From: Candidatus Omnitrophota bacterium
GTDB taxonomy: Bacteria; Omnitrophota; Gorgyraeia; Zapsychrales; Fredricksoniimonadaceae
NCBI GenBank assembly: GCA_903908245.1
Contig: CAIVRE010000014.1
Location: 31,963 to 95,962, forward strand
DNA length: 64,000 nt
Direction of reading: 5' to 3'
The translations under genes and the position numbers were made by a program. This document shows positions 25,084-61,621 of the stretch, piece after piece (the stretch's first letter is position 1; each line of letters starts with the position of its first letter). The notes below the pieces were generated by a model. The model saw nothing but the letters and a program-made list of their open reading frames with translations. It did no database searches and was not told where the DNA came from.

Positions 25084-25099
25084 ATTTCCCCTTGATTGA

Positions 25100-45180: not shown

Positions 45181-45633
45181 TCACCAGTAAAGCTTTTTAA
45201 ACCTCGCCGAATAACGCTTGATCCATTTACGCGAAGCATCTTCCAGAGAAACCTGCTTGCCTGACTGCAAACTCAACAGATCACGGAACTCCGCGATCAG
45301 GTAGATCTGCTCGATCATCTTGACCTTGAACGCTTCCTGGATCCTCAAAAAACTCACGGCAATATCAAAAAGCCTGGTTTCCGCATTCTTCGTACAACGC
45401 ACGACCCTGGCTTTAACACTGAACATCTTGTCCTCAAAAGGCATTTTAACCACGATCCTCGTCCCGTCTTTGACCATGTTCTTGGAAGAGAATAACAGCC
45501 CGCCCAGGCTCACATTCAACGTCTGGGAACGTTCTTCTTCCTGGCCCTTCTTCTCACTGTCCCCAAGCACTGTATAAGCAAGTGGCATGCACAAAGGATG
45601 ACGAATGAACCTCCGGCTTTCAATGACCTTCAT
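45181..45633 (-). CDS. PilZ-domain c-di-GMP-binding protein
   Basis: RxxxR (ESRRFIRHP) and (D/N)xSxGG (NVSLGGLLF) PilZ motifs. Confidence 0.7.
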   Translation of the reverse strand: MKVIESRRFIRHPLCMPLAYTVLGDSEKKGQEEERSQTLNVSLGGLLFSSKNMVKDGTRIVVKMPFEDKMFSVKARVVRCTKNAETRLFDIAVSFLRIQEAFKVKMIEQIYLIAEFRDLLSLQSGKQVSLEDASRKWIKRYSARFKKLYW

Positions 45634-45684: not shown

Positions 45685-47367
45685 TCAAATATCCGGCCCC
45701 CCGTCAAACACAGTCAAAGTGAACTCAAGCGGGACAAGCCCCATACTGGACTGTTCCTGGCGGCTTGGGCCAATGCTCAGCCGGGCCGCATCAAATCCGG
45801 CGGCCAAAATAAGATCATTCACGGCTTTGGCACGCGCAGCCGCCAAAGACTGCAGGGCCGGCTTATCCGCAACGCCATTACCGATCAACTGCCGCTTGAT
45901 CTCCTCTACGATCTTATCATCGTTATAAGCGCCTTCTTTGATCTTATATTTTTTCGTGATCTCCCATAGTTCACGGATACCGACCCTGCGCTGATATAAC
46001 ATCTGGTATATCCAGCTCTCGGAGCGCGTTGATGTCCGACGCAACTCGGCATAATCCTTTGCCAGCGTTTCCGTCTTGATCGCCTTCCAATCGAGATCGG
46101 GGTCATAACCGCCGTTGACCTCAAGCCTGAGCTTCGGATGCTCCTTAAGCCCCTGCAGCAGCGTATGGATCTTGACCTTCTCGGCGTCAGAAATATCAGC
46201 CTTGCCTGGCACGAACCGGACATACCCCAATTCATCCGTCCCGCTATCCACGCCGATCGCCGACCCCAGAAAAGCGAACGGCTTGGTAACAAGCCCTGTA
46301 AAGAAATTCGTCACGACCTGTCCGATCAGCGGCCAGTAATGAAAATCAGGCTTGCTCATATCACCCGTCACAGGAAGCGATATTTTAATGCGTCCCTGCG
46401 GGTCTTCCAGCAACGCCACCACCAGGCCGAACGGCAGCGGCAAAGCATCCTTGCTTTCCACCTTCTGACCAAAAGCAAAGCGCTGGACCAGGATCTTATG
46501 CGCGGCTGTCAACTTGTTCCCGCTGATACGATAATCCGTCTTGAACTCCAATACGCCACCCTTAAGCGCCCGTCCGGTATATTTCCCGACATAAGGGGTC
46601 AATACGTCCAACGCAAAACCATTAAAGGAAAAACTTGCTTCAAGCTCGACAGGCTGGACGAATGGCTTGATGTTCACTTCAGAATTGATGATCCCTTTAC
46701 TCCCCAGCTTTGCCTGAAAAACAACCCTGGCCAACCCATCCCGCCGGGTGGAAAGGCCCGTAACCCGCACATCGATGTCGCTTAAAGCAACGGAAAAGTT
46801 GGGATGAATCGTACGGTCGAGAAAATTCACGCGGCTATTCTTGAGCGTGATAACGTCAACCACGACCAAAGGCAAAGAAGGCATAGGCACCGCCACGGCC
46901 AGTCCCTGCAGCTTGGACGGATTTTTCTGAAGAGCGATCGCCGCCGCAGGCGCCGACTTCTCCCCCGATGGAACAAGATCCATCAGGTTCACATGCCCGC
47001 CGTCTGACAGGACCATATTGACCTTCAGTCCGTCCACCGACAATGATTCCACGCGATATGCTTGCTTGAACAGCGCAATAAAACTGACATCCACCCCCAG
47101 CCGGTCAAAACCCGCCATGACCTGCCCGTCCGTATCAAGCACCGCAAGTCCACGCACATCCAGCTGCCATAAAAAAGGATTGAACATCACCGAAGCGACC
47201 CTGACAGGATGCCCGAGGATCCTGGTCCCCTGGCTTTCAACGCCGAATTTTAACGCCAACGGTAAAACAACAGCAGCCGCAAAAAGATAAAAAACATAAC
47301 AACCAGCCGCGATCTTCAGAAACCAAGGAACAATCCTTTTCAACATATCAACCCCTGCCTCAAACAC
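45685..47367 (-). CDS. Membrane-anchored DUF748/AsmA-like protein
   Basis: N-terminal TM anchor followed by long beta-rich body; resembles DUF748. Confidence 0.35.
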   Translation of the reverse strand: MFEAGVDMLKRIVPWFLKIAAGCYVFYLFAAAVVLPLALKFGVESQGTRILGHPVRVASVMFNPFLWQLDVRGLAVLDTDGQVMAGFDRLGVDVSFIALFKQAYRVESLSVDGLKVNMVLSDGGHVNLMDLVPSGEKSAPAAAIALQKNPSKLQGLAVAVPMPSLPLVVVDVITLKNSRVNFLDRTIHPNFSVALSDIDVRVTGLSTRRDGLARVVFQAKLGSKGIINSEVNIKPFVQPVELEASFSFNGFALDVLTPYVGKYTGRALKGGVLEFKTDYRISGNKLTAAHKILVQRFAFGQKVESKDALPLPFGLVVALLEDPQGRIKISLPVTGDMSKPDFHYWPLIGQVVTNFFTGLVTKPFAFLGSAIGVDSGTDELGYVRFVPGKADISDAEKVKIHTLLQGLKEHPKLRLEVNGGYDPDLDWKAIKTETLAKDYAELRRTSTRSESWIYQMLYQRRVGIRELWEITKKYKIKEGAYNDDKIVEEIKRQLIGNGVADKPALQSLAAARAKAVNDLILAAGFDAARLSIGPSRQEQSSMGLVPLEFTLTVFDGGPDI

Positions 47368-47477
47368 TGCGCTCTTATCTACCTAAATCGCGCCCCTTTA
47401 CGGCCAGCAACACCGGTATTTTCAAGAATACTAATATTAACACGCCCGCGAGCTTGAACACAAGTCCGAAAGTTTTC

Positions 47478-47505
47478 TTGAAATACAAAGTATTAAAGAT
47501 AAAAT
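47478..47505 (+). promoter_or_regulatory. Sigma70-like promoter (TTGAAA-16-TAAAAT) in front of the 19-codon ORF
   Basis: Hexamers at 47478-47483 and 47500-47505. Confidence 0.35.
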
Positions 47506-47562
47506 AATTTATTGCAACCGTTGGAGAACGACCGTTCAACATTCATAAACGCAGGAGGAACA

Positions 47563-47622
47563 ATGGGCGACAAGAATCCGAAGAACAAGATCAAGAAGGG
47601 CAAGACAGCGAAAAAGAAGTAA
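47563..47622 (+). CDS. 19-aa lysine-rich small protein MGDKNPKNKIKKGKTAKKK
   Basis: AGGAGG 6 nt upstream of the ATG, own promoter, terminator hairpin 30 nt downstream. Confidence 0.4.
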   Translation: MGDKNPKNKIKKGKTAKKK

Positions 47623-47653
47623 TCAGCAAAAACCGCGATCCATCGCGCAAAGA

Positions 47654-47686
47654 AAAAGCCGGACGTTTAAAACCGTCCGGCTTTTT
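47654..47686. terminator. Bidirectional rho-independent terminator
   Basis: aaaaagccggacg-tttaaaa-ccgtccggcttttt: 11-bp GC-rich stem flanked by A-run and T-run. Confidence 0.55.
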
Positions 47687-47713
47687 ACATTACACCCTAT
47701 AAAAAACTGCGGC

Positions 47714-48190
47714 TTATTTCGCGGCCGATAGCGGCACAACAGCCTTGGCCTGAACCTCGGCCCTCGTTTTCTCCTGGATCCCCTTCCACTGCTTCCACTG
47801 CTCGGCCGACAACACCGCCTCGACCTTGCGGGAAACCTCGAGGTCGCGGCAGGTGTTATCCACCTGGATATCCGCGATCTTCTGCAGCTGAGCGCGGATC
47901 TTCTTGATTTCTTCCCGTTCGGAAACCATCTTGTTAAGGTCCTGACGCAAGATCGTGATCTGCTGGGTCTTGGCCAGCAACGCGTCCTTCAGGCCGCCTG
48001 TAAGCGTTTTAATATCCGTGACCTGTTTATCCGTCAGCCCCAATTCCTTCTGGAAAGAAAAGATCGTCTTTCCCTCGGCCGGCTGCGCCACAGGCGCGGC
48101 CGCGGCCGGGACCACAGGCTCGACTGCCAGCGCATAACCAGCCATGGAAAGACCCAAAACCGTCATTACCGCGATCAATAACCTTTTCAT
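47714..48190 (-). CDS. Periplasmic LTXXQ-motif (Spy/CpxP-like) helical protein
   Basis: Signal peptide; LTDKQ and repeated helical K/Q-rich segments. Confidence 0.5.
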   Translation of the reverse strand: MKRLLIAVMTVLGLSMAGYALAVEPVVPAAAAPVAQPAEGKTIFSFQKELGLTDKQVTDIKTLTGGLKDALLAKTQQITILRQDLNKMVSEREEIKKIRAQLQKIADIQVDNTCRDLEVSRKVEAVLSAEQWKQWKGIQEKTRAEVQAKAVVPLSAAK

Positions 48191-48365
48191 ATCATCCCTT
48201 TCGTTAAAAGACCCCCGCCGACATCTTTATCGACGGGAAAATAATTCAGAACGATCAGCCTGATCCCGCAGGATCATGCCTATATTACCTCGGCGCGGGA
48301 CTGTGTCAAATTAATTTCTCGCATTGCGCCGCAAAGAACCCGACCATCTTCCTGTCGCCCCTGCC

Positions 48366-50153
48366 TTATGGGGCACATCTGTCATTAACACAATGATTGC
48401 TGTCACATTCCCAATCATTCTGATAACAAAGAGATCCGATGGAACGATCGGTGCAGGTCGCGTACGATGTTTCACAAAAGATCTGGCACTGGTCCTGCGC
48501 GCCGCAATGTTCGCCAAGAGCCCCGTTGGTGCAAGCCCGCTGCCACCCCGAATCATACCCGCAGAACCCCGTCTCGCAAGAACTGTTGTCCGTACACGGA
48601 TCGCCGAAAACCGCTTTCGTCGCGGAGCATTTAAAACCGACACAATAACTTCCGGAACAGTCCGCGCCTGAATCACACCCAGACCCGACACTGCCATCCC
48701 CGCAGCTGGAATGGATACACTGCCCCGACTGACAACTGGAATTGTCCGTGCATGCCGCGCCGGCCGCGCCGGGAGAAGCCTGGCATATCCCGTCAACACA
48801 AAAACCGGATACACAAAAAAGCCCGGAAGAACAGAAATCCCCGTCCGCAATGCTGTGTGTAGCCACGCACGCCCCCGTTGCGGTGTCGCACGACTCTTCC
48901 GCAGTACAACAATTCACCGGCTCGGCATACGCCCAGCCGATGTTCTGTGTGCAGGCGGTAGTGCCATTGGGACAACAATATCCCGGAGCCCAGAACCAGC
49001 CCAGATTGTTGTTATTATTCGCGCAAAAGGTCCCCGCGCCGCAACATGTCATTGGCTGCGAATAACCGCAACATTCATCCCCGTTATTGCAGCAGGTCGC
49101 ATCATGCCCTCCGCCGCTGCTGCACACGAACTGGCCGCTGTTACAGCACTGGACCCTTCCCACGACGGATACGCCGCAACTGTTATCCAGCGGGCAGCAA
49201 TTCCCGACATTGGCAAAATTCTTGCAGCAATACTCCCCGCCGGAACATGTTGCTCCGGCACAATCGGCATCTGCCACAGCAGAACAATAATCCCCGCCGA
49301 CTCTCGGGACATACAATTCCCCTGCAGCGCACGACCCTTGAGTATATCCCGTAAAAACACAACTGCTGGCCGTGCAGGATTGTCCCGCGCCACACGTCGA
49401 CCAGCAACCACCGCAATTGTAGGGGTCCGTGGCAAAATCCGCGCAACTGCCCCAGCAACACCCGGGGTTCTCTCCGCCGCACACATTCCCCGGGCTGCCG
49501 CAATTATTGATATCCCAATTAGTATCGATACAACCGCCGCCACTGCAATAAGAACACCAGTTGCCGCAGCCACCGCAATTGTTGGGATCAGAAGCAAGGT
49601 CCGTACAGCCGCCCCAACAGCACCCGGGGTTCTCCCCGCCGCACACATTCCCGATGCCACCGCAATTATTGACATCCCAGTCTATGTCGACACAACCGCC
49701 ACCGCTGCAATAAGAACACCCGTTGCCGCAACCGCCGCAATTATTAGGATCCGTCGCAAGGTCTGTACAGCTGCCCCAGCAGCACGCGGGATTCTCTCCA
49801 CCGCACACATTCCCGCAACTGCCGCAATTATTAATATCCGAATCCGGATAGACACACGCCCCGGAACAATCGGTCTCGGCTGGAGTGCACCCGCAGACCC
49901 CTCCGACACAAGGCCGCCCGTCGCCGCAAACAGTCCCGCAACCGCCGCAATTATTGGCGTCAGATGTAATATCGGCACAACTGCTGCCGCAACAAATGGT
50001 CCCGCCCGTACAGGTGCCGCAAACCGGGTTCACCCCGTCCTTGAACGGACTGTTCGTGGCCAAAGGGACAGTCGTTATGGCAAAAGCCTGGTTATGCGCC
50101 ACAACCAGAAAAAGCCCCAGGACGATCAAAGAGAACAGCCGGATCATTTTCAT
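48366..50153 (-). CDS. Secreted cysteine-rich protein with about 7 Stig1-type repeats followed by further Cys-rich modules (paralog A)
   Basis: Signal peptide MKMIRLFSLIVLGLFLVVAHNQAFA; repeats CCWG(S/G)CTDLA(T/S)DPNNCGGCGN-C; over 100 Cys in 595 aa. Confidence 0.7.
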   Translation of the reverse strand: MKMIRLFSLIVLGLFLVVAHNQAFAITTVPLATNSPFKDGVNPVCGTCTGGTICCGSSCADITSDANNCGGCGTVCGDGRPCVGGVCGCTPAETDCSGACVYPDSDINNCGSCGNVCGGENPACCWGSCTDLATDPNNCGGCGNGCSYCSGGGCVDIDWDVNNCGGIGNVCGGENPGCCWGGCTDLASDPNNCGGCGNWCSYCSGGGCIDTNWDINNCGSPGNVCGGENPGCCWGSCADFATDPYNCGGCWSTCGAGQSCTASSCVFTGYTQGSCAAGELYVPRVGGDYCSAVADADCAGATCSGGEYCCKNFANVGNCCPLDNSCGVSVVGRVQCCNSGQFVCSSGGGHDATCCNNGDECCGYSQPMTCCGAGTFCANNNNNLGWFWAPGYCCPNGTTACTQNIGWAYAEPVNCCTAEESCDTATGACVATHSIADGDFCSSGLFCVSGFCVDGICQASPGAAGAACTDNSSCQSGQCIHSSCGDGSVGSGCDSGADCSGSYCVGFKCSATKAVFGDPCTDNSSCETGFCGYDSGWQRACTNGALGEHCGAQDQCQIFCETSYATCTDRSIGSLCYQNDWECDSNHCVNDRCAP

Positions 50154-50165
50154 ATCACCTCTGCC

Positions 50166-50585
50166 TTAAAAAGAAATATCCCCGGCATCCGAGATCGCGG
50201 CTGGCTGGCTTTGCCCGGGAAGACCGGCGGAAAAAACCACATAATACCTTCTGTTGCTTGAAACAAGATACTTGTACTCGCTGGTCGCTGTCGCGCCGAA
50301 AGGATCGTACAAAGGCGCTTTGATCAGTTGCGGGGTCGCAGGGATCAGGGCAGACGCACAGATGGTATCCGTCCCCGCAGGAAAAGACCTTTGGTGAATA
50401 TAATACGCCTCCAGCGCAGCCTGCAAGGCTTTGACCTCACTCTGGGCCCGGGTGACCCTGCCCTGGTCCTGCATGCCCTTGATACGAGGCACAGCGATCC
50501 CGATCAAGATCCCCAGCACGGCAAGAACAACAAGGAGTTCCAGAAGGGTAAAACCTTTAGGCCTGCTGACCGGCTCTGACGCCAT
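50166..50585 (-). CDS. GspG/PulG-like major pseudopilin (paralog of 57836-58291)
   Basis: Prepilin N-terminus KGFTLLELLVVLAVLGILIGIAVP plus GspG-type motif RIKGMQDQ. Confidence 0.8.
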   Translation of the reverse strand: MASEPVSRPKGFTLLELLVVLAVLGILIGIAVPRIKGMQDQGRVTRAQSEVKALQAALEAYYIHQRSFPAGTDTICASALIPATPQLIKAPLYDPFGATATSEYKYLVSSNRRYYVVFSAGLPGQSQPAAISDAGDISF

Positions 50586-50599
50586 AAAACACCCCCCTC

Positions 50600-50926
50600 T
50601 TATTTCACCTGGGCCGGTGTCTGCATCGCGGCCTTATGCGCTAGGGCACGCTCTTTCGCCAACTTCATCTGCTCTTCGATCCTGGCCGCAACTTCCGGAT
50701 TAGCCTTGAGAAAAGCATCCCGTTCGGCATTCAACTGTTCGTTGAGCGCCTTGCGCGCCTCGGCCTGTTTTTTCATCAAGGCAGACCATTCCGCCTGCCC
50801 GGCAAATTGATCCGGCCGAACAATTGCCTGCGCGGCAGCGGGCTCCGTCGATGCAGCCGGCTGGGCAAAAGACATTGCAGGAAGAACCATTAACGCCGCG
50901 ACCACTCCCAGGAATACTTTCTTCAT
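50600..50926 (-). CDS. Small secreted helical protein (Spy-like?)
   Basis: Signal peptide; Ala/Lys/Glu-rich helical 108-aa protein. Confidence 0.4.
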   Translation of the reverse strand: MKKVFLGVVAALMVLPAMSFAQPAASTEPAAAQAIVRPDQFAGQAEWSALMKKQAEARKALNEQLNAERDAFLKANPEVAARIEEQMKLAKERALAHKAAMQTPAQVK

Positions 50927-51146
50927 AACCTTCTCCTTTGTTATTTATAATGATAACCAAACCCGGTCCCTGCCTGGCCCCCCGTTCGGGGAGGACAGTC
51001 GATCATCAGCTGCACGTCCCCGTTGCGGTATTGCACGACTGTCCGGCCGTACAACAATTGATCGGCTCACCGTACGCCCAGCCAAGGTTCTTCGCGCAAG
51101 CCGTCGTGCCATTGGGGCAACAATATCCCGGAGCCCAGTACCAGCC

Positions 51147-52889
51147 CTAGCTGTTGTGATTATTCGCGCAGAATGTCCCTGCTCCGCAACATGTCATCGG
51201 ATTGGAATAACCGCAGCATTCATCCCCGATATTACATACTGTCGCGTCATGGCCCCCTCCGCTTACACAGGCAAATTGGCTGCTGCTGACACAGGCGACC
51301 CTTCCGACAACGGACGAACTGCATGTTTGGTCCATATCGCAACAAACCTGGTCCCCGCTGCCACCCCACCCGTTCACTGCCGCGTAATTCTTGCACGAAT
51401 ATTGCGTAGCCGAACAACCGCTATCCCCGGCTTGCGTACAATAACTGCCGCCGCCCTGATTTGCGATCTCCATTTGCCCCGCAGGGCACTGGCAGACGCT
51501 ATCAATGCAAGTCTTGCTGCCTGTGCACACATTCCCGCACCAGCCGCAATTGTTATTATCAGCGCTCATATCCTCTAGACAACTGCCACCGGAACAGCAG
51601 CCTAAAGGACATACATTCCCGAGACTGCCGCAATTGTTGGGATCCGAATTTAAATCCACACAACTGCTCCCGATACAACTCGAAGGACACCAATTGCCGC
51701 AACCGCCGCAGTTGTTCGTATCCGTTGCAAGGTCACTGCACCCGCCCCAACAGCACGAAGGGTTTTCTCCGCTGCACACGTTCCCGACACTGCCGCAATT
51801 GTTGACATCCCAATCCAGGTCATAACAGCCGCTACCGACACAATAAGGACACCAGTTCCCGCAGCCGCCGCAATTATTCGTATCCGTCGCAAGGTCCGTA
51901 CAACCACCCCAGCAACACGCGGGATTATCCCCATAACACACATTACCGGGGCTGCCGCAATTATTGACATCCCAGTTCATATCCGGCGTACAAACACCCG
52001 CAGTACAATAAGGAAGGTCCCAAGGGCACACATTGCCACAGCTGCCGCAATTATTTGTATCCGCATTGGTATCCACACAAAACCCGGAACAGATCGTCAG
52101 CCCGCCCGGGCAGCTGGTGCCGCAACTCCCCGTTGAAGTATCGCAAGCCTCCTCGGACGTACAGCAATTGACCGGCTCCATATATGCCCACCCGCCCCAA
52201 TACGCGCAAGTCGTCGTGCCGGTAGGGCAGCAATATCCCGGGGCATAAAGCCAGCCGAAAGGATTATTATTATTCGCGCAAAACGTTCCCGGGCCGCAGC
52301 AGGTCAGCGGATTGGAATAACCGCAGCATTCTTCCCCGTTATTGCACACGGTCGCGTCATGCCCCCCCCCGCTTATACAAGCGAATTGATTATTGCTGAC
52401 ACATCCAACCCTTCCAACAACAGAAGCACTGCAGGTTTGATCGGTCTCGCAACATGTCTGGTCAGTGCTCCCGCCCCACCCATGAATAGCATAATAATTC
52501 TTGCACGCATATTGCGTCGATGAACAACCCGTATCACCCGGTTGCGCACAATAACTGCCGCCGCCCTGGTTCCAGATCTGCATCTGCCCCGCGGCACAGG
52601 TCCCCTGGTTATAAGGAAGAACAACCGTACACGCTCCGCTGGAACAGGCTTTTCCAACACCGCAAACAGTCCCGCAACCACCGCAATTATTGACATCGGA
52701 AGAAATATTGACGCAACTGCTGCCGCAACAAACAGTACCGCCCGAACAGACCCCGCAAGCCGGATTTATCCCGCTCTGATACGGGCTATTGGTTGCCAGA
52801 GGAACAGGCTTTATGGCCAGGGCCGTGTTGCCTGCCGCAACCAAAGAAAACCCGAGGACAATTAGAAGAAACAGCCTGATCGTTTTCAT
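51147..52889 (-). CDS. Secreted cysteine-rich Stig1-repeat protein (paralog B, modules in a different order)
   Basis: N-terminal 90 aa about 75% identical to paralog A; Stig1-type repeats in the C-terminal half; a CCGxGTFCANN module occurs twice. Confidence 0.7.
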   Translation of the reverse strand: MKTIRLFLLIVLGFSLVAAGNTALAIKPVPLATNSPYQSGINPACGVCSGGTVCCGSSCVNISSDVNNCGGCGTVCGVGKACSSGACTVVLPYNQGTCAAGQMQIWNQGGGSYCAQPGDTGCSSTQYACKNYYAIHGWGGSTDQTCCETDQTCSASVVGRVGCVSNNQFACISGGGHDATVCNNGEECCGYSNPLTCCGPGTFCANNNNPFGWLYAPGYCCPTGTTTCAYWGGWAYMEPVNCCTSEEACDTSTGSCGTSCPGGLTICSGFCVDTNADTNNCGSCGNVCPWDLPYCTAGVCTPDMNWDVNNCGSPGNVCYGDNPACCWGGCTDLATDTNNCGGCGNWCPYCVGSGCYDLDWDVNNCGSVGNVCSGENPSCCWGGCSDLATDTNNCGGCGNWCPSSCIGSSCVDLNSDPNNCGSLGNVCPLGCCSGGSCLEDMSADNNNCGWCGNVCTGSKTCIDSVCQCPAGQMEIANQGGGSYCTQAGDSGCSATQYSCKNYAAVNGWGGSGDQVCCDMDQTCSSSVVGRVACVSSSQFACVSGGGHDATVCNIGDECCGYSNPMTCCGAGTFCANNHNS

Positions 52890-52999
52890 ATCACCAGCAA
52901 ATTAATATTAGAAGAAAACTCCGCAGATTAATGAACAATCCGCTTTAAAGCCTCAGAAAAAGATTACTCCCAAAAAGAGGATTCAAGAAATATTTTCTT

Positions 53000-53575
53000 T
53001 TATGGCATGCCCGGCAAAAGCTGCTGCTGATCCGGCTGGGCGGACTGCATTTCCTGCGGAAGGTCCTGCGGCGGTGTCTTCTGGAGTTCCGGCTGAGGTT
53101 CCGGCTGGGATTCCTGCTGTAAAAGAGTCAGGACCATCTCTCTCCCTCCCCCGGCAATGATCACCGAATCCTCCCGGATGGCCTTGACCGCCATCCCGCC
53201 TCCCACATCGGCCCCGACACCAACCACGATATCATTGATAATAGCACTGGGTAAAGCACCGCTGGATATAATGCCCGTCAGGATATAACGCTTCATTGAA
53301 ACCGGTGCCTTAACGGCCATTACCGGAGGGGTCACCGGCTTGACCATCGTTTTGAACGCGCGTGAATCAAACGGGTCCCTTTCGCCCCAATCCACCGAAA
53401 TATAGCCGTCATCACTGCTCTTGTCGGCGTTGATCAGGTCCATCAGCTCTTTCTGATCCGACAGGACCGCTGCCGAAGAAACGGCCGGATCAGCTTGCGC
53501 GGTCCTGATCCCGACCGGCACAAGCGCCACAACCGCCCAGCAGCACATAAGAATGATTTTTTTATTTCTGTCCAT
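53000..53575 (-). CDS. PilP-like pilus assembly lipoprotein
   Basis: Signal peptide; C-terminal beta-domain pattern YILTGIISSG..P.AII..VVGVGADVGGGMAVKAIREDSVII like PilP. Confidence 0.55.
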   Translation of the reverse strand: MDRNKKIILMCCWAVVALVPVGIRTAQADPAVSSAAVLSDQKELMDLINADKSSDDGYISVDWGERDPFDSRAFKTMVKPVTPPVMAVKAPVSMKRYILTGIISSGALPSAIINDIVVGVGADVGGGMAVKAIREDSVIIAGGGREMVLTLLQQESQPEPQPELQKTPPQDLPQEMQSAQPDQQQLLPGMP

Positions 53576-54089
53576 TGTCTTTTGCCACCCACAACACGAA
53601 CGTCATCTTCGCTGTCACCTGTTCCAGGCTGGTGCCCTGCGGCCGCACCCGCAGGCTTTCAACCGCAATGATCCCCTCGGGCATATTCCTGACCGCCGTC
53701 AGAAAAAGTCCGAGATCCTTGAAAGAAGACACGGTTTCAACCCCCATGGGCATCCGTCGATAGATCTCTTTCTTTTCCTTCTCAACCCCGTACGGCCTCA
53801 AAGTGACGATCCCCACCCTGTTTTCCTTGGCCAGCCTGGCAAGGACGTCCTTGGCCAAAGGAAGGCTTTCTTTGGTGAACAACCGCTGACGCGCATCGCC
53901 AGCACTCCTGGCCGAAAGAAGGCTGCGCAAAAAAAGATTCTTCTGGGCATACCCATTCTGCTGCTCATAAAACTCTTTATTCGCCTCAATAACAGGAGAA
54001 CATAAAAAGAATGCCAAAAAACCCAGGAACAGAATAACGGCGAACGAGGAAATATAAAAAACGATCTTTTCATCTATTTTAAAGTTCAT
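53562..54089 (-). CDS. PilO-like inner-membrane pilus assembly protein
   Basis: Single N-terminal TM plus ~140-aa periplasmic domain; sits between PilMN and PilP; overlapping stops/starts. Confidence 0.55.
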   Translation of the reverse strand: MNFKIDEKIVFYISSFAVILFLGFLAFFLCSPVIEANKEFYEQQNGYAQKNLFLRSLLSARSAGDARQRLFTKESLPLAKDVLARLAKENRVGIVTLRPYGVEKEKKEIYRRMPMGVETVSSFKDLGLFLTAVRNMPEGIIAVESLRVRPQGTSLEQVTAKMTFVLWVAKDNGQK

Positions 54090-55813
54090 TTTTTTGCTTC
54101 CCCCTGCCCCATACGCCCCTCGATCTGAAACTGCGTAACATTGGCCGTCCTTGGCATCTTTTGAGACGGCAAAAGGCGGGCCGAACTCACAATATCCTTG
54201 TTAAGGTCCAGCACGAGCTGAGCCGGCGCTTCCTGCGCTTCCCGCCCGTCACCAACCACCATCCCCGACAAAGTCACCCTGTCGCCATCGAGATTGATCT
54301 CGGTCAAACAAACATTCCTGGGAAGATAACTTAACTGTTTGAACAGAACACTCATGTCCGGACGGGTGCGCGCCAGCATTTTCACCTTAAGCTCGCCTTT
54401 GAACCTCTCGACCTGCGGCAAAAGGCCTTCGTATTCGCCTCTGGAAAACGCCAACCGCGCGCGGTTCGCATCCCTTTCCGCCGACAGGCCATGATACGCA
54501 CCACCCAGGACCAGAATGACGGCCGCCGCCGACAGGCCGGCAACGATCTTCCTGACAAAGATCTTTTTCCGTTCTTTAAGATGGCTCGGCAAAAGGTTGA
54601 TCCCGTGCGGATCCCCGAGCGAAGCCCCGATCGCCAGGACCAGCCGATGGGCCTCTTCCTCATTACGCACAACACCATCATAAAGAAGTTCAATGTCCTT
54701 GAGCGGATTACCCAAATGGACCGGCAGATTCAGCTCGGCGTTCAGATATCCCGGTAAACCTTTAAGCCTGGCCCCGCCGCCGAACACGATAAGCCGGTCA
54801 ACCGTACCGACACGCATCTTGTCGCGGTAGAAATCGAAGGAACGCGAGATCTCGCCCACGAACTGTTCAAGCCTTGGGCGCAGCAACGCCAGGATCTGCG
54901 GAGCCGAGATCTTGCCGTTAATGATAAAATCATCGTCCGGTGAAGGCAGCCCGTGATCCCTTTTGATCTGCTCGGCCTCTTCGAGCGTAAGCTCGATCTT
55001 TCCTGCGTTGGTGAACATCGCGCGGGTCAGGCTGCGGGTCAGGTCCGACCCCGTCACCGTGATCTGACGCGAGAACTCCAGCCTGGAATTCCGATAGAAA
55101 TTCAATTCCGTGCCGATGGTCCCCATTTCAAGGACCGCGATCGTTTCCTCCATCCGGAGCTTGGACTTCTTGATGATATTCTCCATGGCCAATGCCAGCG
55201 GGATAATGGCGCTCACATTAAGCCCCAGCGGCGACTCGTCGGCCATGCCCGCTTCGCCACCGGACAACGGCTTTTCCCGCTGGGAAATAAAATGCGACAA
55301 AAGATCATCCACGGACGACTTGGCGGCCGCCGCCACCATCACATTCATTTTCTCCACACCCTTGTCCATGACACGGCCCAGGACTTTGAAATCCACCACC
55401 GGATTCTTGATGGCGAAATGCTGGGAATTGAGGACCTCCAGCCTGATCGCGTCCACCAGGTCCCCCGGCGGCATGACAGGCAGGACCATATTCTCGACCA
55501 TGGCCTGCCGGCCGAAAAGGACACAAACGATCTCCGCCCGGCGGGTATTAAAGTCCGCCAATACCGACTTAAGGGCCGCGATGGCCGCGGCCGCGCGCTG
55601 GTTCTCGTCGGAAATATCAATGCTTCGGACCGCCGTCTTGATCAGTGTGGGTTTCCCCCGGTAAATGGCTGTCTGCGCCACGCTCACCGAAGCATAACTG
55701 ATATCGATGCCGATGACCGACCGGCCGGCGCACAAAGCTTTCTGAAGCCTGAGCTGCTGCGGATCGGCCATTGCTGTGTCCTTGAGCGCCTCGGCTCCGC
55801 CGCCTTCAACCAT
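54086..55813 (-). CDS. PilM-PilN fusion protein (actin-like ATPase-fold PilM fused to TM/periplasmic PilN)
   Basis: PilM-like N-terminal 380 aa (GIDISYASV...), then PilN hallmark INLLPSHLKERKK followed by a TM helix. Confidence 0.75.
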   Translation of the reverse strand: MVEGGGAEALKDTAMADPQQLRLQKALCAGRSVIGIDISYASVSVAQTAIYRGKPTLIKTAVRSIDISDENQRAAAAIAALKSVLADFNTRRAEIVCVLFGRQAMVENMVLPVMPPGDLVDAIRLEVLNSQHFAIKNPVVDFKVLGRVMDKGVEKMNVMVAAAAKSSVDDLLSHFISQREKPLSGGEAGMADESPLGLNVSAIIPLALAMENIIKKSKLRMEETIAVLEMGTIGTELNFYRNSRLEFSRQITVTGSDLTRSLTRAMFTNAGKIELTLEEAEQIKRDHGLPSPDDDFIINGKISAPQILALLRPRLEQFVGEISRSFDFYRDKMRVGTVDRLIVFGGGARLKGLPGYLNAELNLPVHLGNPLKDIELLYDGVVRNEEEAHRLVLAIGASLGDPHGINLLPSHLKERKKIFVRKIVAGLSAAAVILVLGGAYHGLSAERDANRARLAFSRGEYEGLLPQVERFKGELKVKMLARTRPDMSVLFKQLSYLPRNVCLTEINLDGDRVTLSGMVVGDGREAQEAPAQLVLDLNKDIVSSARLLPSQKMPRTANVTQFQIEGRMGQGEAKK

Positions 55814-55825
55814 AAACAGGATCCT

Positions 55826-56944
55826 TCATTTCTCACCCCAGCTGTTGGGGACCGGCGTAAAGCCGGATCCCGCCGTATCGCCTGCGTAGATCTGCGCGAT
55901 CTCGATCGAAGACAAAGCCCTGTTGTAAAGACGGACATCGTCCATTGTCCCGGAAAAATACAAATTATTATCCCGCATATTCGAACCTATGACCAGAGCG
56001 TAATTCCCGTTGTAACTGACATCCTTGGCGGCCGTTGATGTCCCATCCGCAAGGCCATCCAGATAATATTTCCCGCCCGTGCCTCCGCTTTTCACAAAAC
56101 ACACATGATGCCATGCCCCGTCATTCACGCCGGTATTGCTTCCCGCGCCGGCCGGAAACCCATAGCCGCTGTCCCAGTCCCAGAAAACCATCTTGTGATT
56201 GGAGTAAACCTCCCAAACACACTCTCCGGCTATACTGGCGGCTGTACGCCCCAAAGACAGGATAAAACACTCCCCGGCGCAAGCGGTCTTGATCCATGCA
56301 CAAACCGTCAGATTCGAACGGGGAGGATTATTAAATGTCGTCCTTGTCAAATAAGAGCTGCTCCCGTTAAAACTTAACGCCCCGACGCCGACCTTCCCCG
56401 CTGTCCAGGCCGGATCATTAACATACGTCCCCGTATTCCCCCTGCCGCTGGAATCCGCCGCCGTTATGGGCATCGTTCCGGAAGCTGCGTCATCGAACTT
56501 CCACCAGCCTACGGGGCCCATTCTCACGCGCTGGTATACGACCCGGGTCATTTGATTGACGGTCGACCGACCGGTGATATAGATCGAGCTGTCGGGAGCG
56601 TAATCCTCCACCCACATCGTATAACTGCCGCTGGTCAAATTTTCACTCCGTGGATCTGTTGGCCCCGCGCCGGCCGCCGCCGGATAAGCCGTCGTCCGCC
56701 ACGTCCCGTAAATACTCGCATCCGGCGCCGTGTTGAGCAGATACCACATCGCCTTGTTCACCCCCGCCTCCGCCAGATAGAACGCCTGGCTGCTGTTCAG
56801 CTGCCGGGCGGCGTTAAGCTGGGAATAGATCACCGTATTAATAAAGACCACCACAAAGACCACCAGCGCGAACATGAACATCATGGTCATCAAAAGAATA
56901 CTGCCGCGCCGGCCGCTGATCTTAAATATCGTCGATATTGTCAT
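55826..56944 (-). CDS. Minor pilin/pilus tip candidate: PilX_N-type N-terminal TM segment plus C-terminal LamG/concanavalin-like domain (start trimmed to MTISTIF)
   Basis: GRRGSILLMTMMFMFALVVFVVVF hydrophobic segment; C-terminal LamG_3 signature (...SGTMDDVRLYNRALSSIEIAQIY). Confidence 0.55.
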   Translation of the reverse strand: MTISTIFKISGRRGSILLMTMMFMFALVVFVVVFINTVIYSQLNAARQLNSSQAFYLAEAGVNKAMWYLLNTAPDASIYGTWRTTAYPAAAGAGPTDPRSENLTSGSYTMWVEDYAPDSSIYITGRSTVNQMTRVVYQRVRMGPVGWWKFDDAASGTMPITAADSSGRGNTGTYVNDPAWTAGKVGVGALSFNGSSSYLTRTTFNNPPRSNLTVCAWIKTACAGECFILSLGRTAASIAGECVWEVYSNHKMVFWDWDSGYGFPAGAGSNTGVNDGAWHHVCFVKSGGTGGKYYLDGLADGTSTAAKDVSYNGNYALVIGSNMRDNNLYFSGTMDDVRLYNRALSSIEIAQIYAGDTAGSGFTPVPNSWGEK

Positions 56945-56957
56945 TGGAAAAGAGCTG

Positions 56958-57434
56958 TCACAGGTTCCTTGGCCTGACCTTGCTGCGCACATGCACAACA
57001 GACCCCGCATTATCGGCGGAAAGGTCGATCGTGATCACGTTCCCGCTTTGACTGAACACCGTCGTGGCCGAAGGCTGTATCCTCGCTGCAATGGTGCCCC
57101 CGGTATCCGCAGGGTCCGCTGCCAGCCCTTTCAACAAACGATAAGAAATCGTGTTAAGAACAAAACGGTATTCTTTCGCCCCTGCCCCATCGCCCAGGTC
57201 GGCCTTGAACGTCACTTTTTGCCCGCTTAAAGATGTGATCTCGGTAGCCCGGCGAAGCTGCTTGACCATCAATTCCATGGCCTGGGACAGCTCCATCCTC
57301 GTGGAAGCACGGCGGTCCCCGGCGTCCCAAGAGCTCAGGCAAGCCAGGTAAACGAACACAACCGTCCCTGCGAGGATCGCCATGACAGCCGAAGAAATAA
57401 GAAGTTCAACGAGCGTAAAAGCCGTCTTGTTCAT
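56958..57434 (-). CDS. Pseudopilin (prepilin-type N-terminal cleavage/methylation domain)
   Basis: MNKTAFTLVELLISSAVMAILAG N-terminus. Confidence 0.7.
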   Translation of the reverse strand: MNKTAFTLVELLISSAVMAILAGTVVFVYLACLSSWDAGDRRASTRMELSQAMELMVKQLRRATEITSLSGQKVTFKADLGDGAGAKEYRFVLNTISYRLLKGLAADPADTGGTIAARIQPSATTVFSQSGNVITIDLSADNAGSVVHVRSKVRPRNL

Positions 57435-57442
57435 CCTGATCC

Positions 57443-57823
57443 CTAAAGCGTCCGGTTGGCCAGCAATGTTTCCAGGCTCACTTGCTGGTCAACGCCTTTG
57501 AATTTCCAGTAGATGATGACCTTCACTTGTTTCGGGTCGCCGGAAACGGTGATCTGGCGATCGTACAGGGCAAACGGCGCGCCAATATTCACCCGCGCCA
57601 CTGCCGCAACAGAGCCCCAACCCGTATCTTTAAGTACCTCCATCTGCTCCTGCGCCAGCGCGGACGCAACAACCATGCCTTCCACGCTCTGATCAGTGCC
57701 CAGCGCCTGGGACATCGCCCCAACCGCCGAAAAAACACCCACCGCCAGCACAATACCGGCCAACATCAATTCCAGCAATGTGAACCCGCCGTTGCGGGCA
57801 CGGCCCTTACACCTCATGATCAA
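57443..57823 (-). CDS. PilV/GspI-like pseudopilin
   Basis: GGFTLLELMLAGIVLAVGVFS prepilin N-terminus; 126 aa. Confidence 0.65.
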   Translation of the reverse strand: MIMRCKGRARNGGFTLLELMLAGIVLAVGVFSAVGAMSQALGTDQSVEGMVVASALAQEQMEVLKDTGWGSVAAVARVNIGAPFALYDRQITVSGDPKQVKVIIYWKFKGVDQQVSLETLLANRTL

Positions 57824-57835
57824 CTCCCGCTAACA

Positions 57836-58291
57836 TCAGATACAGCCGGCAACAGTTCCGTTCGTAACACAAATGCCGCCGTTAAGATTACCCGTGACCG
57901 CGGCACCGCCATCAGTAAGCGCGCTGATCGTTGGCGCAGTACCAGGCCCGACGGATATAATGATATAATAAAGCCCGTCCGTAGACTTAAGATACTTGTA
58001 CTCGGTCCCGGTGGCGGCGAACGGATCATAGAGCGGAGCAGCCACGATCTTGGGATTCAAGGCATTGAGCGTGCTGGCACAGATCGTATTACTGCTCGCC
58101 GGATAAGCATTGCTGTTGTTGATATAATACGACACGATCGCGGTCTGAAGCGTCTTGAGCTCGGACTTGGCTTTCTGGATATTGGCCTGGTCCTGCATGC
58201 CTTTGATACGCGGAACAGCGATGCCGATCAGGATCGCGAGGACCGCGAGCACAACGAGAATTTCGAGGATCGTAAAACCTTTTTTATTCAT
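57836..58291 (-). CDS. GspG/PulG-like major pseudopilin
   Basis: KKGFTILEILVVLAVLAILIGIAVPRIKGMQDQ; about 65% identical to the 50166-50585 product over the N-terminal half. Confidence 0.8.
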   Translation of the reverse strand: MNKKGFTILEILVVLAVLAILIGIAVPRIKGMQDQANIQKAKSELKTLQTAIVSYYINNSNAYPASSNTICASTLNALNPKIVAAPLYDPFAATGTEYKYLKSTDGLYYIIISVGPGTAPTISALTDGGAAVTGNLNGGICVTNGTVAGCI

Positions 58292-58322
58292 ACTGTTTCT
58301 CCTTTTTGTTTTTTACCGTCTT

Positions 58323-59552
58323 TTATCGTTGAATTGTTTTAACAAGGTCGAACATCGGCAGAATGACCGACGCCAACATTGTTCCTACGCATATCCCCAA
58401 GAAAGAAATGAACACCGGCTCAATGAACACGATCGACTGCTTGATCGCGAACTCCACTTTCAACTCGTAAAAATCCGCGACTTTATTGAGCATTTCTCCT
58501 ATTCTACCACTTTTCTCCCCTACAGAGATCATATATACCACGTCTCTGGAAAATTCCTGATGCCCTTCAAGCGCCGTATAGATCCCTTCGCCCTTCTCGG
58601 CACTGGCGCGCACCTCGCGCACGATCCCGGCGAAGACCATATTCCCGATCACATCCTCGACGATATCCAGGGCCCTCAGGAGAGGCACTCCGGAGTTCAG
58701 CATGGAACCAAAGGTCCGGCTGAAACGCGCCACGAACATATTGCACATCAGAGGACCGACGATCGGAAGCTTCAAAAGGACACGATGCCAAAGCTTCTTG
58801 CCGAACTCGGTCCCCAGGAATTGCCGGACACCCAGGACGAGCGCCCCCAGGATCAAAAAGAACAACACCCAATAATGCTGAAGCCATATCCCCAGGCTGC
58901 ACATCAATTGAGTGGCCAGAGGCAGCTCCACCCCGGCCTTGCTGAAGATCTCCGCGAACTTCGGGATAACGAACGTCAGGATCAACAGGATGACACCCGT
59001 GCCGACAGTCATCAATATCACCGGATACGTAAGCGCGCCAACGACCTTCTGCCTCAGGTCTTCCTGCTTTTCCATATGCACCGCCAGCGTCTTTAACACC
59101 TGGCCCATGGTCCCGGAAGATTCCCCGACGCGCACCATGTTGATGAAGAACGGGGAAAAGACCCGGGGATGCCCCTCCAGCGCGTCCGACAAAGACGACC
59201 CTTCCGAAACCTGCAGGGCGATCTTCTGCACCACACTCCCGAAATAAAGATTCCCCAGTTGCCCGGCAATACTGTTAAGCGCCCCCAGCAGCGGGATACC
59301 CGCGCCGACCATGTTGGAAAGGTTGACGCAAAAAAGCATCAGCTCCGCGATCGTCACGCGCGTGACCCGAACGACAGCGGGCGCCACAGGAACAGTGACC
59401 GCACTGTGCACAAGCGCGACCTCGCCGACCTTGACCGGCGTATAGTCCCTCCGGTGCAGCTGCCTGATCGCATCCTGCTCGTTCTCGGCTTCCACCTCGC
59501 CCGTAACCAGGCCACCGGCATTATTCCTGGCTTTATAAGAAAACACGATCAT
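58323..59552 (-). CDS. GspF/PilC-family inner-membrane platform protein
   Basis: Two T2SSF repeats, 3 TM helices, 409 aa. Confidence 0.85.
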   Translation of the reverse strand: MIVFSYKARNNAGGLVTGEVEAENEQDAIRQLHRRDYTPVKVGEVALVHSAVTVPVAPAVVRVTRVTIAELMLFCVNLSNMVGAGIPLLGALNSIAGQLGNLYFGSVVQKIALQVSEGSSLSDALEGHPRVFSPFFINMVRVGESSGTMGQVLKTLAVHMEKQEDLRQKVVGALTYPVILMTVGTGVILLILTFVIPKFAEIFSKAGVELPLATQLMCSLGIWLQHYWVLFFLILGALVLGVRQFLGTEFGKKLWHRVLLKLPIVGPLMCNMFVARFSRTFGSMLNSGVPLLRALDIVEDVIGNMVFAGIVREVRASAEKGEGIYTALEGHQEFSRDVVYMISVGEKSGRIGEMLNKVADFYELKVEFAIKQSIVFIEPVFISFLGICVGTMLASVILPMFDLVKTIQR

Positions 59553-59571
59553 TCAAGACCCCTCGCCCTTT

Positions 59572-61191
59572 TTATTCCTGCTGGATCACCCGGTAGACCT
59601 CTTCTTTCTTCGTCAGGCCTTCCTCGGCCTTCTCCATGCCGTTATCACGCAGGCTCTGCATCCCGGCCGAAAGGGCCGCACGGTTGATCTCGTCGGCAGA
59701 TGCCTTGCGCAGGATCAGCTTGCGGATCTCTTCATCAAAAACCATCAGCTCATAGATCCCGGTACGCCCCTTATACCCCGTCATGGAACAATTCTTGCAA
59801 CCCTGGCCGGCGCAATCCCGGCAGTTGAGGCGCACCAGGCGCTGCGCCATAACACCAATGATCGAAGACACCAGAAGGAACGACTCAACGCCGATATCCA
59901 GAAGGCGGGTCACCGCCCCGGCCGCATTGTTGGTATGAAGCGTCGCGAGGACCAAATGGCCCGTCAGGGACGCCTGGATGGCGATCTGCGCGGTCTCCAC
60001 ATCACGGATCTCGCCGATCATGATCACGTCGGGATCCTGCCGGAGGATCGCGCGCAGGCCCCGGGAGAACGTCAGGTCGACCGCCGGATCCACCTGTGTC
60101 TGGCGAATACCCGGCAAACGGTATTCCACGGGGTCTTCAATGGTCACGATCGATTTCTCGGGCGAGTTGATCGTGCTCACCGAGGAATACAGCGTGGTCG
60201 TCTTGCCGCTGCCCGTCGGCCCGGTGACCAGGATGATCCCGCTGGTGCGGGTCAAAAGGGCCTTGAACTTGGTCAGGTTCTCCTTGTGCAGGCCGATCTG
60301 CTCCAGGCCCAGCAGAATGGCACTGGTGTCCAAAAGCCGCAAGACCGCGTTCTCTCCGTAAACTGTCGGCAAAAATGAAATACGGATATCCACGCGCCGG
60401 CTGTCAAGCTGCATCTGAATGCGCCCGTCCTGCGGCTTGCGGCGTTCGGCGATATCCAGGCTCGCCAGGATCTTGAGGCGCGAAATGATCGCCGCGCGGA
60501 ATTGCTTGGGAGGCAATGCCTGCGGATACAATATCCCGTCGATCCGGAAACGGATATTCAGGGAAAGCTCCTCCGGCTCGATATGGATATCCGACGCCCC
60601 GTCGTTAACAGCCTTGATGATCATCGTGTTAACGAATTTAACCAGCGGAGACTCCTCCACCGACCCCTGCAGCCGGTGGACCTCGACCTCGTCGCCTTCT
60701 CTTACCTCGCGCTTCTGGTCGTCAAGGGTCTTGATCGCTTCCTGGATCCCGCTGGGCATCGCATAAAACTCCCCCAGGGCCTTCTTAACCTCGTCTTCCG
60801 TGGCAATAGCCGGATCGATCACAAGCCCTGTCCGGACCGTCAATTCATCGATCGCATAAAGATCAAAAACATCGACCATGGCGCAGGTCAGGCTGCCGCC
60901 GATCTTGAAGACCGGGATCACCTGGTACTTGCGCGCCATCTCCTCGGGGACCAGGCGGATCACCTCGGGATCGATCTCAAGGTTCCCGATCTCGATGCGG
61001 GGGATATCCGTCTGCTCGGAAATAAAATCGGCAAGCTTGTCCTGCGTGATCAGGCCCAGCCGCGGCAGGACCTTGATCGCGGGGTCCCCGCTGCTCTTTT
61101 GCTCGATCTGGACGCTTTCCCACTGATGCTGGGAAATAAGGCCCTTCTCGAACGCCAGCTCCCCGACGGCTTTCTTGGAATATTTAGCCAT
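59572..61191 (-). CDS. GspE/PilB-family assembly ATPase
   Basis: N-terminal GspE_N/MshEN-like domain; Walker A GPTGSGKTTT; Asp/His boxes; tetracysteine CRDC...CKNC motif. Confidence 0.85.
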   Translation of the reverse strand: MAKYSKKAVGELAFEKGLISQHQWESVQIEQKSSGDPAIKVLPRLGLITQDKLADFISEQTDIPRIEIGNLEIDPEVIRLVPEEMARKYQVIPVFKIGGSLTCAMVDVFDLYAIDELTVRTGLVIDPAIATEDEVKKALGEFYAMPSGIQEAIKTLDDQKREVREGDEVEVHRLQGSVEESPLVKFVNTMIIKAVNDGASDIHIEPEELSLNIRFRIDGILYPQALPPKQFRAAIISRLKILASLDIAERRKPQDGRIQMQLDSRRVDIRISFLPTVYGENAVLRLLDTSAILLGLEQIGLHKENLTKFKALLTRTSGIILVTGPTGSGKTTTLYSSVSTINSPEKSIVTIEDPVEYRLPGIRQTQVDPAVDLTFSRGLRAILRQDPDVIMIGEIRDVETAQIAIQASLTGHLVLATLHTNNAAGAVTRLLDIGVESFLLVSSIIGVMAQRLVRLNCRDCAGQGCKNCSMTGYKGRTGIYELMVFDEEIRKLILRKASADEINRAALSAGMQSLRDNGMEKAEEGLTKKEEVYRVIQQE

Positions 61192-61207
61192 AGTCTGCTC
61201 TCGACGG

Positions 61208-61609
61208 TCACACGCGAACGATCAATTCCTCGACCTTGCGCATCAATTCCGGGATATTGATCGGTTTGTTGATAAAAGCATCCACCTTCACCTGGGCACT
61301 GAGCCTCTCATCTGCCGCGTCGGCACTGGCCGTGACCATGATCACGGGGATCCCGCGAAACCGCCTGTCCGCCTTGATCAGGGCGCACGTCTTCAGGCCA
61401 TCCATCTTGGGCATCATCCGGTCGAGGATGATCAGGTCCGGAAGGCTTTGCTTCACCGCCGCCAGCGCCTCCTGGCCGTTATAACACTTGGCCACCTCAA
61501 AACCGGCCGCATGAAGGCTGGCTTCCAGGAACCTCACGATCCCCGGATCGTCATCAACCACAAGGATCCTTTTCTTGGCTGTCTCTTCTGTCACGGTCAT
61601 TCCCCTCAA
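61208..61609 (-). CDS. Single-domain CheY-like response regulator embedded in the pilus cluster
   Basis: Receiver residues (VVDDD, ...D..MP.MDG, ...T...K); no output domain. Confidence 0.7.
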   Translation of the reverse strand: MRGMTVTEETAKKRILVVDDDPGIVRFLEASLHAAGFEVAKCYNGQEALAAVKQSLPDLIILDRMMPKMDGLKTCALIKADRRFRGIPVIMVTASADAADERLSAQVKVDAFINKPINIPELMRKVEELIVRV

Positions 61610-61621
61610 GCTTTCTGTTGT

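Follow-up and report, generated by a model that had tools for sequence, protein, structure and literature searches.

Two Stig1-repeat paralogues beside a type II secretion-like operon of an Omnitrophota bacterium: candidate disulfide-rich cargo with a near-orphan domain

Stig1-type repeats are among the commonest cysteine-rich repeats of environmental bacteria, and bacterial proteins built from them are numerous in databases, widespread and uncharacterised. What, then, do two such proteins do, and by which route do they leave the cell, when their genes stand directly behind a secretion operon? The two genes, A and B, lie at positions 48366-52889 of a 64,000-nucleotide (nt) stretch of a Candidatus Omnitrophota genome (contig CAIVRE010000014.1), called the window below, and the operon next to them resembles type II secretion systems (T2SS) and type IV pili. 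I find that A and B are genuine, conserved genes with Stig1-type repeats, that they share a near-orphan extra domain, and that they are linked to a secretion system in a way that is unusual for Stig1 proteins; the domain and the linkage set the pair apart. To the proposal that both proteins are exported by Sec, are knotted by disulfides and serve the neighbouring T2SS-like machine as cargo or surface ligands I give about an even chance.

The original prediction, made from the letters alone, described a pair of paralogous, "giant" cysteine-rich proteins with signal peptides and shuffled modules. Two paralogous open reading frames (ORFs) with signal peptides do occupy these coordinates, on the minus strand, but at 595 and 580 amino acids (aa) they are hardly giants, and A, for which about 120 Cys had been estimated, contains 94 (15.8% of its residues, next to 97 Gly, 12 Trp and 15 Tyr); B contains 85 (14.7%, with 14 Trp and 19 Tyr). 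By inspection both proteins start with signal peptides of the signal peptidase I type, MKMIRLFSLIVLGLFLVVAHNQAFA and MKTIRLFLLIVLGFSLVAAGNTALA, cleaved before I (AFA/I and ALA/I, respectively). As in T2SS substrates, these are Sec leaders with neither a lipobox nor a prepilin leader. An RBS-like (ribosome-binding-site-like) GGTGAT precedes each gene, and a VPLATNSP linker is common to both products. The first 90 residues had been called near-identical; they are homologous, but identity reaches only 17/25, 31/46 and 59/90 (66%) over successively longer stretches. Two in-frame ATG codons (50147-50153) could start A, giving MKMIRLF or MIRLF; public gene calls take the second (593 aa), and homology with B (MKTIRLF) favours the first. 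Between A and B, dN (nonsynonymous divergence) is 0.13-0.31 against a dS (synonymous divergence) of 0.55 to above 1. With dN well below dS, A and B are genuine genes under purifying selection.

The shuffling of modules is borne out. In BLASTP, A aligns with B twice and at different offsets: A45-383 pairs with B256-580 (55% identity) and A224-588 pairs with B47-420 (41%), so the modules are common to both and their order differs; when B is read through its stop codon (see below), A48-429 aligns with B182-626. A module of the form CCGxGTFCANN...GYCCPxGTT, here called M, occurs once in A and twice in B, just as had been proposed, and the C-terminal tail of A has no counterpart in B (Table 1).

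Table 1. Features of the A/B locus and its surroundings (positions are those of the window; G1 and G2, first and second GspG-type major pseudopilin)
Feature	Position	Strand	Description or basis
Paralogue A	48366..50153	minus	595 aa, 94 Cys; ORF and Pfam Stig1 match (65.1 bits)
Layout of A			signal peptide, aa 1-25; linker; ~7 compact Stig1-type units, aa 45-268; M module, aa 267-430; six 4-Cys repeats, aa 431-595
Stig1-type repeat region of A (aa 45-268)	49350..50021	minus	162-nt DNA period; 13 copies of a 66-nt unit
M module of A (aa 267-430)	48864..49355	minus	Cys-rich orphan, predicted all-beta, ~165 aa, invariant SGGGHD
C-terminal tail of A (aa 431-595)	48369..48863	minus	six ~27-aa repeats, G..C..D..C.SG.C....C
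Paralogue B up to TAG	51147..52889	minus	580 aa, 85 Cys
Layout of B			signal peptide; linker; one Stig1 unit, aa 45-88; M copy 1, aa 92-257; ~7 Stig1 units, aa 258-466; incomplete M copy 2, aa 467-580
M copy 1 of B	52119..52616	minus	
M copy 2 of B	51009..51491	minus	includes post-TAG codons
In-frame TAG (51147-51149), then 46 codons	51009..51149	minus	codons complete M copy 2 (GWYWAPGYCCPNGTTACAKNLGWAYGEPINCCTAGQSCNTATGTCS)
A-like patch in B, 32 nt	51086..51117	minus	in assembly L005 identical to the homologous stretch of A
T2SS-like/type IV pilus-like operon	53000..63265	minus	Pfam and NCBIfam; directly upstream of B
GspE ATPase	59572..61191	minus	MshEN-type N-terminal domain (PF05157)
Small secreted helical protein	50600..50926	minus	108 aa, Lys/Glu/Ala-rich; between B and G2
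G2	50166..50585	minus	second GspG-type major pseudopilin, 139 aa; Pfam N_methyl and T2SSG
Spy/CpxP (LTXXQ)-like periplasmic helical protein	47714..48190	minus	158 aa; NCBIfam Spy, E = 1e-7, below cut-off
Hairpin between A and Spy-like gene	48212..48239	minus	12 bp with T-tract
Hairpin after Spy-like gene	47633..47650	minus	terminator-like
DUF748/AsmA-like protein	45685..47367	minus	Pfam; downstream of cassette
PilZ-domain protein	45181..45633	minus	Pfam; downstream of cassette

The assignment of the repeats to Stig1 is right at the domain level. Against a Pfam cut-off of 24.1 bits for PF04885, A scores 65.1 bits in six stretches and B 63.4 bits in five. In A the Stig1 region repeats with a period of 54 aa (162 nt), and within each super-repeat two kinds of half-unit of 25-29 aa alternate, the first reading CCWGxCtDLAtDpNNCGGCGNWC and the second xDxxWDvNNCGspGNVCgGENPx, whose NCGxCG has lost its second Cys; every other unit of A and B has this Cys replaced (NNCGSPG or NNCGGIG). 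The CCWG repeats on which the original prediction dwelt are real, and the CCWGxC..D..NNCGGCGNxC form accounts for three of seven NNCG-type units in A and two of eight in B. In the AlphaFold2 (AF2) model of A, the Stig1 array folds as tandem beta-hairpins with a predicted local distance difference test score (pLDDT) of at least about 90 for residues 51-260 and 87 for 261-270.

A search of 5.8 billion clusters returned 899 homologues at E<=1e-5, and PF04885 was present in all 120 matches listed. Homologues other than A and B themselves span only about 35-45% of A, and module-wise phmmer confines the common part to the Stig1 region; the N-terminal linker, the M module and the tail of A appear in none of the 120 best homologues. 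Over the repeat region, identity to bacterial Stig1-repeat proteins is 30-44%. An alignment of A and B with 54 other proteins (56 sequences) keeps its Cys columns invariant or nearly so, with the consensus C..G...C.G.CVD...D..NCG.CG..C..G..C..G.C, the canonical bacterial repeat. The NCG motifs recur every 25-29 aa in A (25-30 aa over A and B) compared with 41-44 aa in most homologues, and compact CC.G.C.D units exist elsewhere too (for example P0017, P0018 and P0044). Proteins of this kind are frequent in Myxococcota/Polyangia and occur in other bacteria, an archaeon and a fungus. Neither A (62.3 bits) nor B (55.0 bits) belongs to the NCBIfam family NF041328, whose cut-off is 100 bits. No sequence relative of A was found in the PDB at E up to 1, and the best Foldseek match of the A model to PDB structures (integrin beta I-EGF, Pvs25) was not significant (E 2.8). 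I found neither a described function nor a solved structure for any bacterial Stig1 member, and a literature search did not turn up a paper on the function of one.

The original prediction also proposed looking for the N-terminal module in metagenomes. A scan with the first 88 aa did retrieve 80 loci, the yield of a single 8-residue pattern, but in nearly every one of them the match is confined to the Stig1 unit (about residues 40-88). A few weak matches (L034, L074, L084 and L092, 26-35% identity) reach further into the N-terminal part. To judge by these comparisons, leader and linker look private to A and B.

More distinctive is the M module. When 1.84 billion representatives were searched exhaustively with an M profile (HMMER), only three clusters matched, A itself and two (P0121 and P0122) from 1-kb contigs; a metagenome scan with the M profile found no relatives, the isolated module has no match in Pfam at E up to 10, and the profile has none among PDB sequences at E up to 10. 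The five M sequences agree throughout in 27 columns, 14 of them Cys, and SGGGHD is part of this invariant set. The longer motif C.SGGGHDAT.C, likewise without variation among the five known copies, is a candidate site for a ligand or a metal. When the whole of A was modelled with AF2, pLDDT fell below 50 in M and in the tail; M modelled alone from the five sequences is all-beta, with a mean pLDDT of 81.5 and a predicted template modelling score (pTM) of 0.69. This model is fairly confident, and it is best regarded as a hypothesis given the shallow five-sequence alignment. The locus does present a near-orphan domain of 165 aa with a new-looking predicted fold. The tail of A draws only a chance-level match to the Pfam EB module (E = 1.9, 9.1 bits against a cut-off of 24.3) and none in PDB sequences at E up to 10.

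B raises a question of its own, since its frame is interrupted by TAG within the second M copy. The frame beyond is closed by a TGA-TGA pair at 51003-51008. The post-TAG stretch is 76% identical to A and keeps 7/7 Cys, with dN 0.13 and dS 0.55; this lack of decay implies that the TAG is recent or the stop leaky. B has an odd number of Cys (85) as ended by the TAG, and 92 when read through. In a 1.2-kb contig of another assembly (L009), an M-module protein stops soon after the corresponding module, overshooting the aligned end of read-through B by 5 residues, which supports the longer B as ancestral. The TAG is found in all six assemblies that contain this DNA, and its presence in five identical assemblies shows that it is not an assembly error. 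TAG terminates four other ORFs in the window; a nonsense mutation in B is therefore the simplest reading, and genome-wide recoding of TAG is unlikely. The window contains no tRNA gene, so that no suppressor or pyrrolysine tRNA can be proposed. Derivation of the TAG from TTG finds no support, the aligned codons being CTG (Leu) in A and TTC (Phe) in M copy 1 of B. If the stop is leaky, B might exist as two isoforms.

The DNA-level repeats had been taken to make the locus recombination-prone and a likely site of repeat-number variation. Comparison of six assemblies does not support this. Five, assembled from different samples of a single project, agree at 100% throughout the locus, TAG included, and the sixth (L005) differs only by eight substitutions within 51086-51117 (about 2384-2415 of L005); repeat number, at assembly-level resolution, does not vary among the six. 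Repeat copies are 60-80% identical at the DNA level, and exact repeats in 48366-52889 run to 24 nt at most; the DNA repeats of the locus are old. The patch in L005, the one trace of recombination seen, is probably a short gene-conversion tract and less likely an assembler chimera. Past conversion would also fit the post-TAG segment, whose dS to A (0.55) is lower than that of the rest of M (~1.7).

What ties A and B to secretion is their position. All genes from 63265 down to 47714 lie on the minus strand, and A and B adjoin a complete T2SS-like gene set in the order secretin, response regulator, GspE (MshEN), GspF, GspG (G1), two pseudopilins, a LamG-domain protein, a PilM-PilN fusion, PilO and a GspC-like protein; no prepilin peptidase is present in the window. 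At the 3' end of this operon stands a cassette of five genes, B, the small helical periplasmic protein, G2, A and the Spy-like protein, with gaps of 12-220 nt; strong terminator-like hairpins occur only around and after the Spy-like gene. G2 is 56% identical to G1 (57836-58291) by BLASTP, lacks the C-terminal Cys pair present in G1 and in the GspG of the relative L007, and scores 63 bits, below cut-off, against TIGR01710 gspG. The 108-aa helical protein has no Pfam or NCBIfam family and very few homologues (3 clusters); a similar small helical protein also follows the M-module protein on the L009 contig (536-850).

This arrangement suggests a mechanism. Cargo of T2SS crosses the inner membrane via Sec and acquires its fold and disulfides once in the periplasm; its genes are often neighbours of those for secretion, as with pulA and sslE/yghJ. 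A and B would likewise be carried into the periplasm by Sec and fold there oxidatively, possibly helped by the two small helical proteins of the cassette. The pseudopilus of the neighbouring machine would then drive them through the secretin, and outside they would serve as stable, adhesin- or ligand-like binding proteins, either extracellular or bound to the surface. Their many Cys would form intradomain disulfides, and their modules would be rigid tandem beta-hairpin Stig1 repeats, the orphan all-beta M and, in A only, the six 4-Cys repeats. Extensive periplasmic disulfide formation is plausible from composition and models, and the even Cys counts of A (94) and of read-through B (92) are as expected for full pairing. 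That the two helical proteins are folding helpers is possible. Disulfide bonding, export by the T2SS-like machine and a binding function are each something that I infer.

Several observations weigh against this proposal. The link of A and B to the secretion system is one of adjacency only, and a weak hairpin between the GspC-like gene and B leaves co-transcription putative. Cut short by its TAG, B may be partly disabled. The closest genomes with the same operon are Omnitrophota-affiliated (L007, Candidatus Omnitrophota; P0131, Candidatus Omnitrophica), apart from one partial match labelled Elusimicrobia. Four relatives (L007, L015, L016 and L017), two of which bear an Omnitrophota or Omnitrophica name, keep the operon gene order, with PilMN 40-52% identical (51% in L007), and in all four the operon stops after the GspC-like gene, unrelated genes come next, and there is no cassette. 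The cassette is thus a lineage-specific addition, and a variable cargo slot after the GspC-like gene can be rejected as a general rule, those four genomes having nothing there. No secretin, GspF, pseudopilin or PilMN gene occurs in the 80 other Stig1 metagenome loci (466 kb), and two other Stig1 proteins examined individually both sit in unrelated contexts, which together rule out a general link of Stig1 proteins to T2SS. The partnership with the small protein is not constant, since a homologue on contig L013 (10001-10315) lies among housekeeping genes. Finally, the organism looks anaerobic by genes of the window (2-oxoacid:ferredoxin oxidoreductase, radical SAM enzymes), and these 64 kb contain no Dsb-type or VKOR-type oxidase, which leaves disulfide formation putative.

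These observations bear most directly on the possibility that the genes are neighbours by accident and that A and B are ordinary bacterial Stig1 extracellular proteins (matrix, S-layer-like or binding) whose route is unrelated to the T2SS-like system. The great abundance of Stig1-repeat proteins in unrelated contexts and the missing cassette of the closest operon relatives speak for such an accident. Yet the cassette has a GspG paralogue of its own between A and B, it is co-oriented with the operon at tight spacing, and a folded 60-kDa protein in a diderm cell needs some outer-membrane route. I consider accident unlikely, although it is the most serious competitor of the cargo proposal; if it is correct, the locus merely adds two further uncharacterised Stig1-repeat proteins.

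G2 lends itself to another explanation, in which it builds an alternative pseudopilus or pilus-like fibre on which A and/or B are displayed or docked as tip or side adhesins. The diverged major pseudopilin copy does sit exactly between A and B, PilM/N/O are parts of the type IV pilus type, and GspE bears an MshEN-type domain. Set against these are the ordinary Sec signal peptides of A and B, which are not class III prepilin leaders, the absence by Pfam of a retraction ATPase or prepilin peptidase at the locus, and the lack of any Pfam likeness to the tip adhesins PilY1 or PilC. Such fibres seem to me rather improbable. A more elaborate version of the cargo proposal is about as doubtful, perhaps a shade more so: as a self-contained addition, the cassette would re-equip a conserved T2SS-like machine of Omnitrophota, G2 and the two periplasmic helpers exporting or displaying disulfide-knotted proteins, M serving as a new ligand-binding domain for attachment to host or prey, and a leaky TAG giving two isoforms of B.

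Could the Cys instead stay reduced in an anoxic periplasm and sequester metals or sulfide-reactive species, making A and B a metallothionein-like sink or a metal cluster scaffold? A Cys content of 15-16%, the anaerobe-like gene content and the window's lack of a Dsb gene would suit such a role, and the invariant SGGGHD of M could be a metal ligand site. Metallothioneins, however, have about 30% Cys in Cys-X-Cys/Cys-Cys clusters, few aromatics and no stable fold without metal. A and B are well below that Cys density, contain aromatics and give confident beta-hairpin models without metal; hairpin arrays of this sort are typical of disulfide-stabilised repeats, the Cys spacing fits a family whose plant members are oxidised extracellular proteins, and the Cys totals are even. 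In a window that spans only 64 kb of the genome, the lack of Dsb genes also says little. I regard thiol or metal binding as very improbable. Weakest of all, and to my mind virtually excluded, is the reading of A and B as artefact ORFs of low-complexity or GC-rich sequence, which the original prediction would have accepted had there been no Stig1 match and no conserved Cys spacing: long shadow ORFs do overlap the region (49049-49675 on the minus strand and, antisense to A, a 516-aa ORF at 48711-50261 on the plus strand), but GC is 0.56 here as in the rest of the window, Pfam matches, hundreds of homologues, signal peptides and dN far below dS all contradict it, the 56-sequence alignment (A3) preserves the spacing, and gene calling recovers these ORFs in several independent assemblies.

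Known systems offer partial parallels to the cargo proposal. The founders of PF04885, the plant STIG1/GRIM REAPER (GRI) family, share with A and B the Cys-rich C..D...D.NNCG.CG unit and secretion by signal peptide. The plant proteins are single-domain extracellular ligands of receptor kinases, about 140-170 aa long; A and B, bacterial and about 600 aa long, with 7-8 compact units at 25-30 aa spacing and fused, unrelated Cys-rich modules, match these signalling peptides in neither size nor domain make-up. No functional inference is transferable from plant STIG1 to A and B. Bacterial Stig1-repeat proteins, including those of NF041328 ("MXAN_6577-like cysteine-rich protein"), resemble A and B in having a signal peptide followed by tandem Stig1-type repeats; those examined differ in their mostly 41-44 aa spacing, and none has a T2SS context.

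On the side of the machine, T2SS substrates encoded by their own secretion genes (PulA with pulC-O, SslE/YghJ with gspC-M) have, like A and B, a Sec signal and co-oriented, adjoining secretin, GspE, GspF and pseudopilin genes. They share no sequence or domain similarity with A and B, and the present machine uses assembly proteins of the PilM/N/O type in place of GspL/M and has a second major pseudopilin embedded among the candidate cargo genes. Closer to home, giant secreted proteins of Omnitrophota are commonly flanked by loci like T2SS or type IV pili, with pilZ genes downstream (bioRxiv 10.1101/2023.11.21.568195; 10.64898/2026.06.07.730766). As in those loci, a secreted, presumed binding protein lies here downstream of a T2SS-like locus and a PilZ gene further downstream. 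A and B, unlike the giants, are about 600 aa and not thousands long and have no transmembrane, SecA-like or CAZyme-like (carbohydrate-active enzyme-like) domains, and the published giant locus has rcpC and a Rotamase_2 peptidyl-prolyl isomerase, neither of which is seen here. By analogy, the giant-protein loci are a suggestive parallel and not a match.

The locus is a rare case in which Stig1 proteins are tied to a specific export machine, an extra pseudopilin and candidate chaperones, and it makes both the role and the exit route of bacterial Stig1 proteins testable. What the Omnitrophota T2SS-like systems secrete is debated, with a host-dependent or predatory lifestyle in view, and the locus would add candidate cargo to the list.

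Some features of the surroundings deserve mention. The domains MshEN and PilZ can both bind cyclic diguanylate (c-di-GMP), and the MshEN-type domain on GspE together with the PilZ gene suggests c-di-GMP control of the secretion machine. A DUF748/AsmA gene adjoins the operon in L015 as well. In the whole window no Rfam family reaches its gathering score, and 47300-53200 holds only chance matches (E above 0.4), so no riboswitch or leader is indicated. Elsewhere in the window a 995-aa ORF (30599-33586, minus strand) has no Pfam family at E<=1e-4, and the ORFs at 24511-25434, 25100-26398 and 16429-17463 are likewise without a Pfam match. The Spy-like protein is faintly similar to Pfam LTXXQ (E = 0.18, 13.0 bits against a cut-off of 24.3). 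Next to the hairpin at 48212-48239 lies a match to a sigma70-like promoter (48309-48282), and the Spy-like gene may be under separate control.

Two of the contigs that encode homologues of the 108-aa protein carry further genes of interest. On L014 the homologue (1442-1792) follows a Cys-poor, Thr/Gly/Ala-rich repeat protein that is adhesin-like, BspA, Flg_new or DUF1566-like by eye only. L013 bears a MamF/MmsF-family (magnetosome-associated) gene at 196-519, and the related organism may be magnetotactic.

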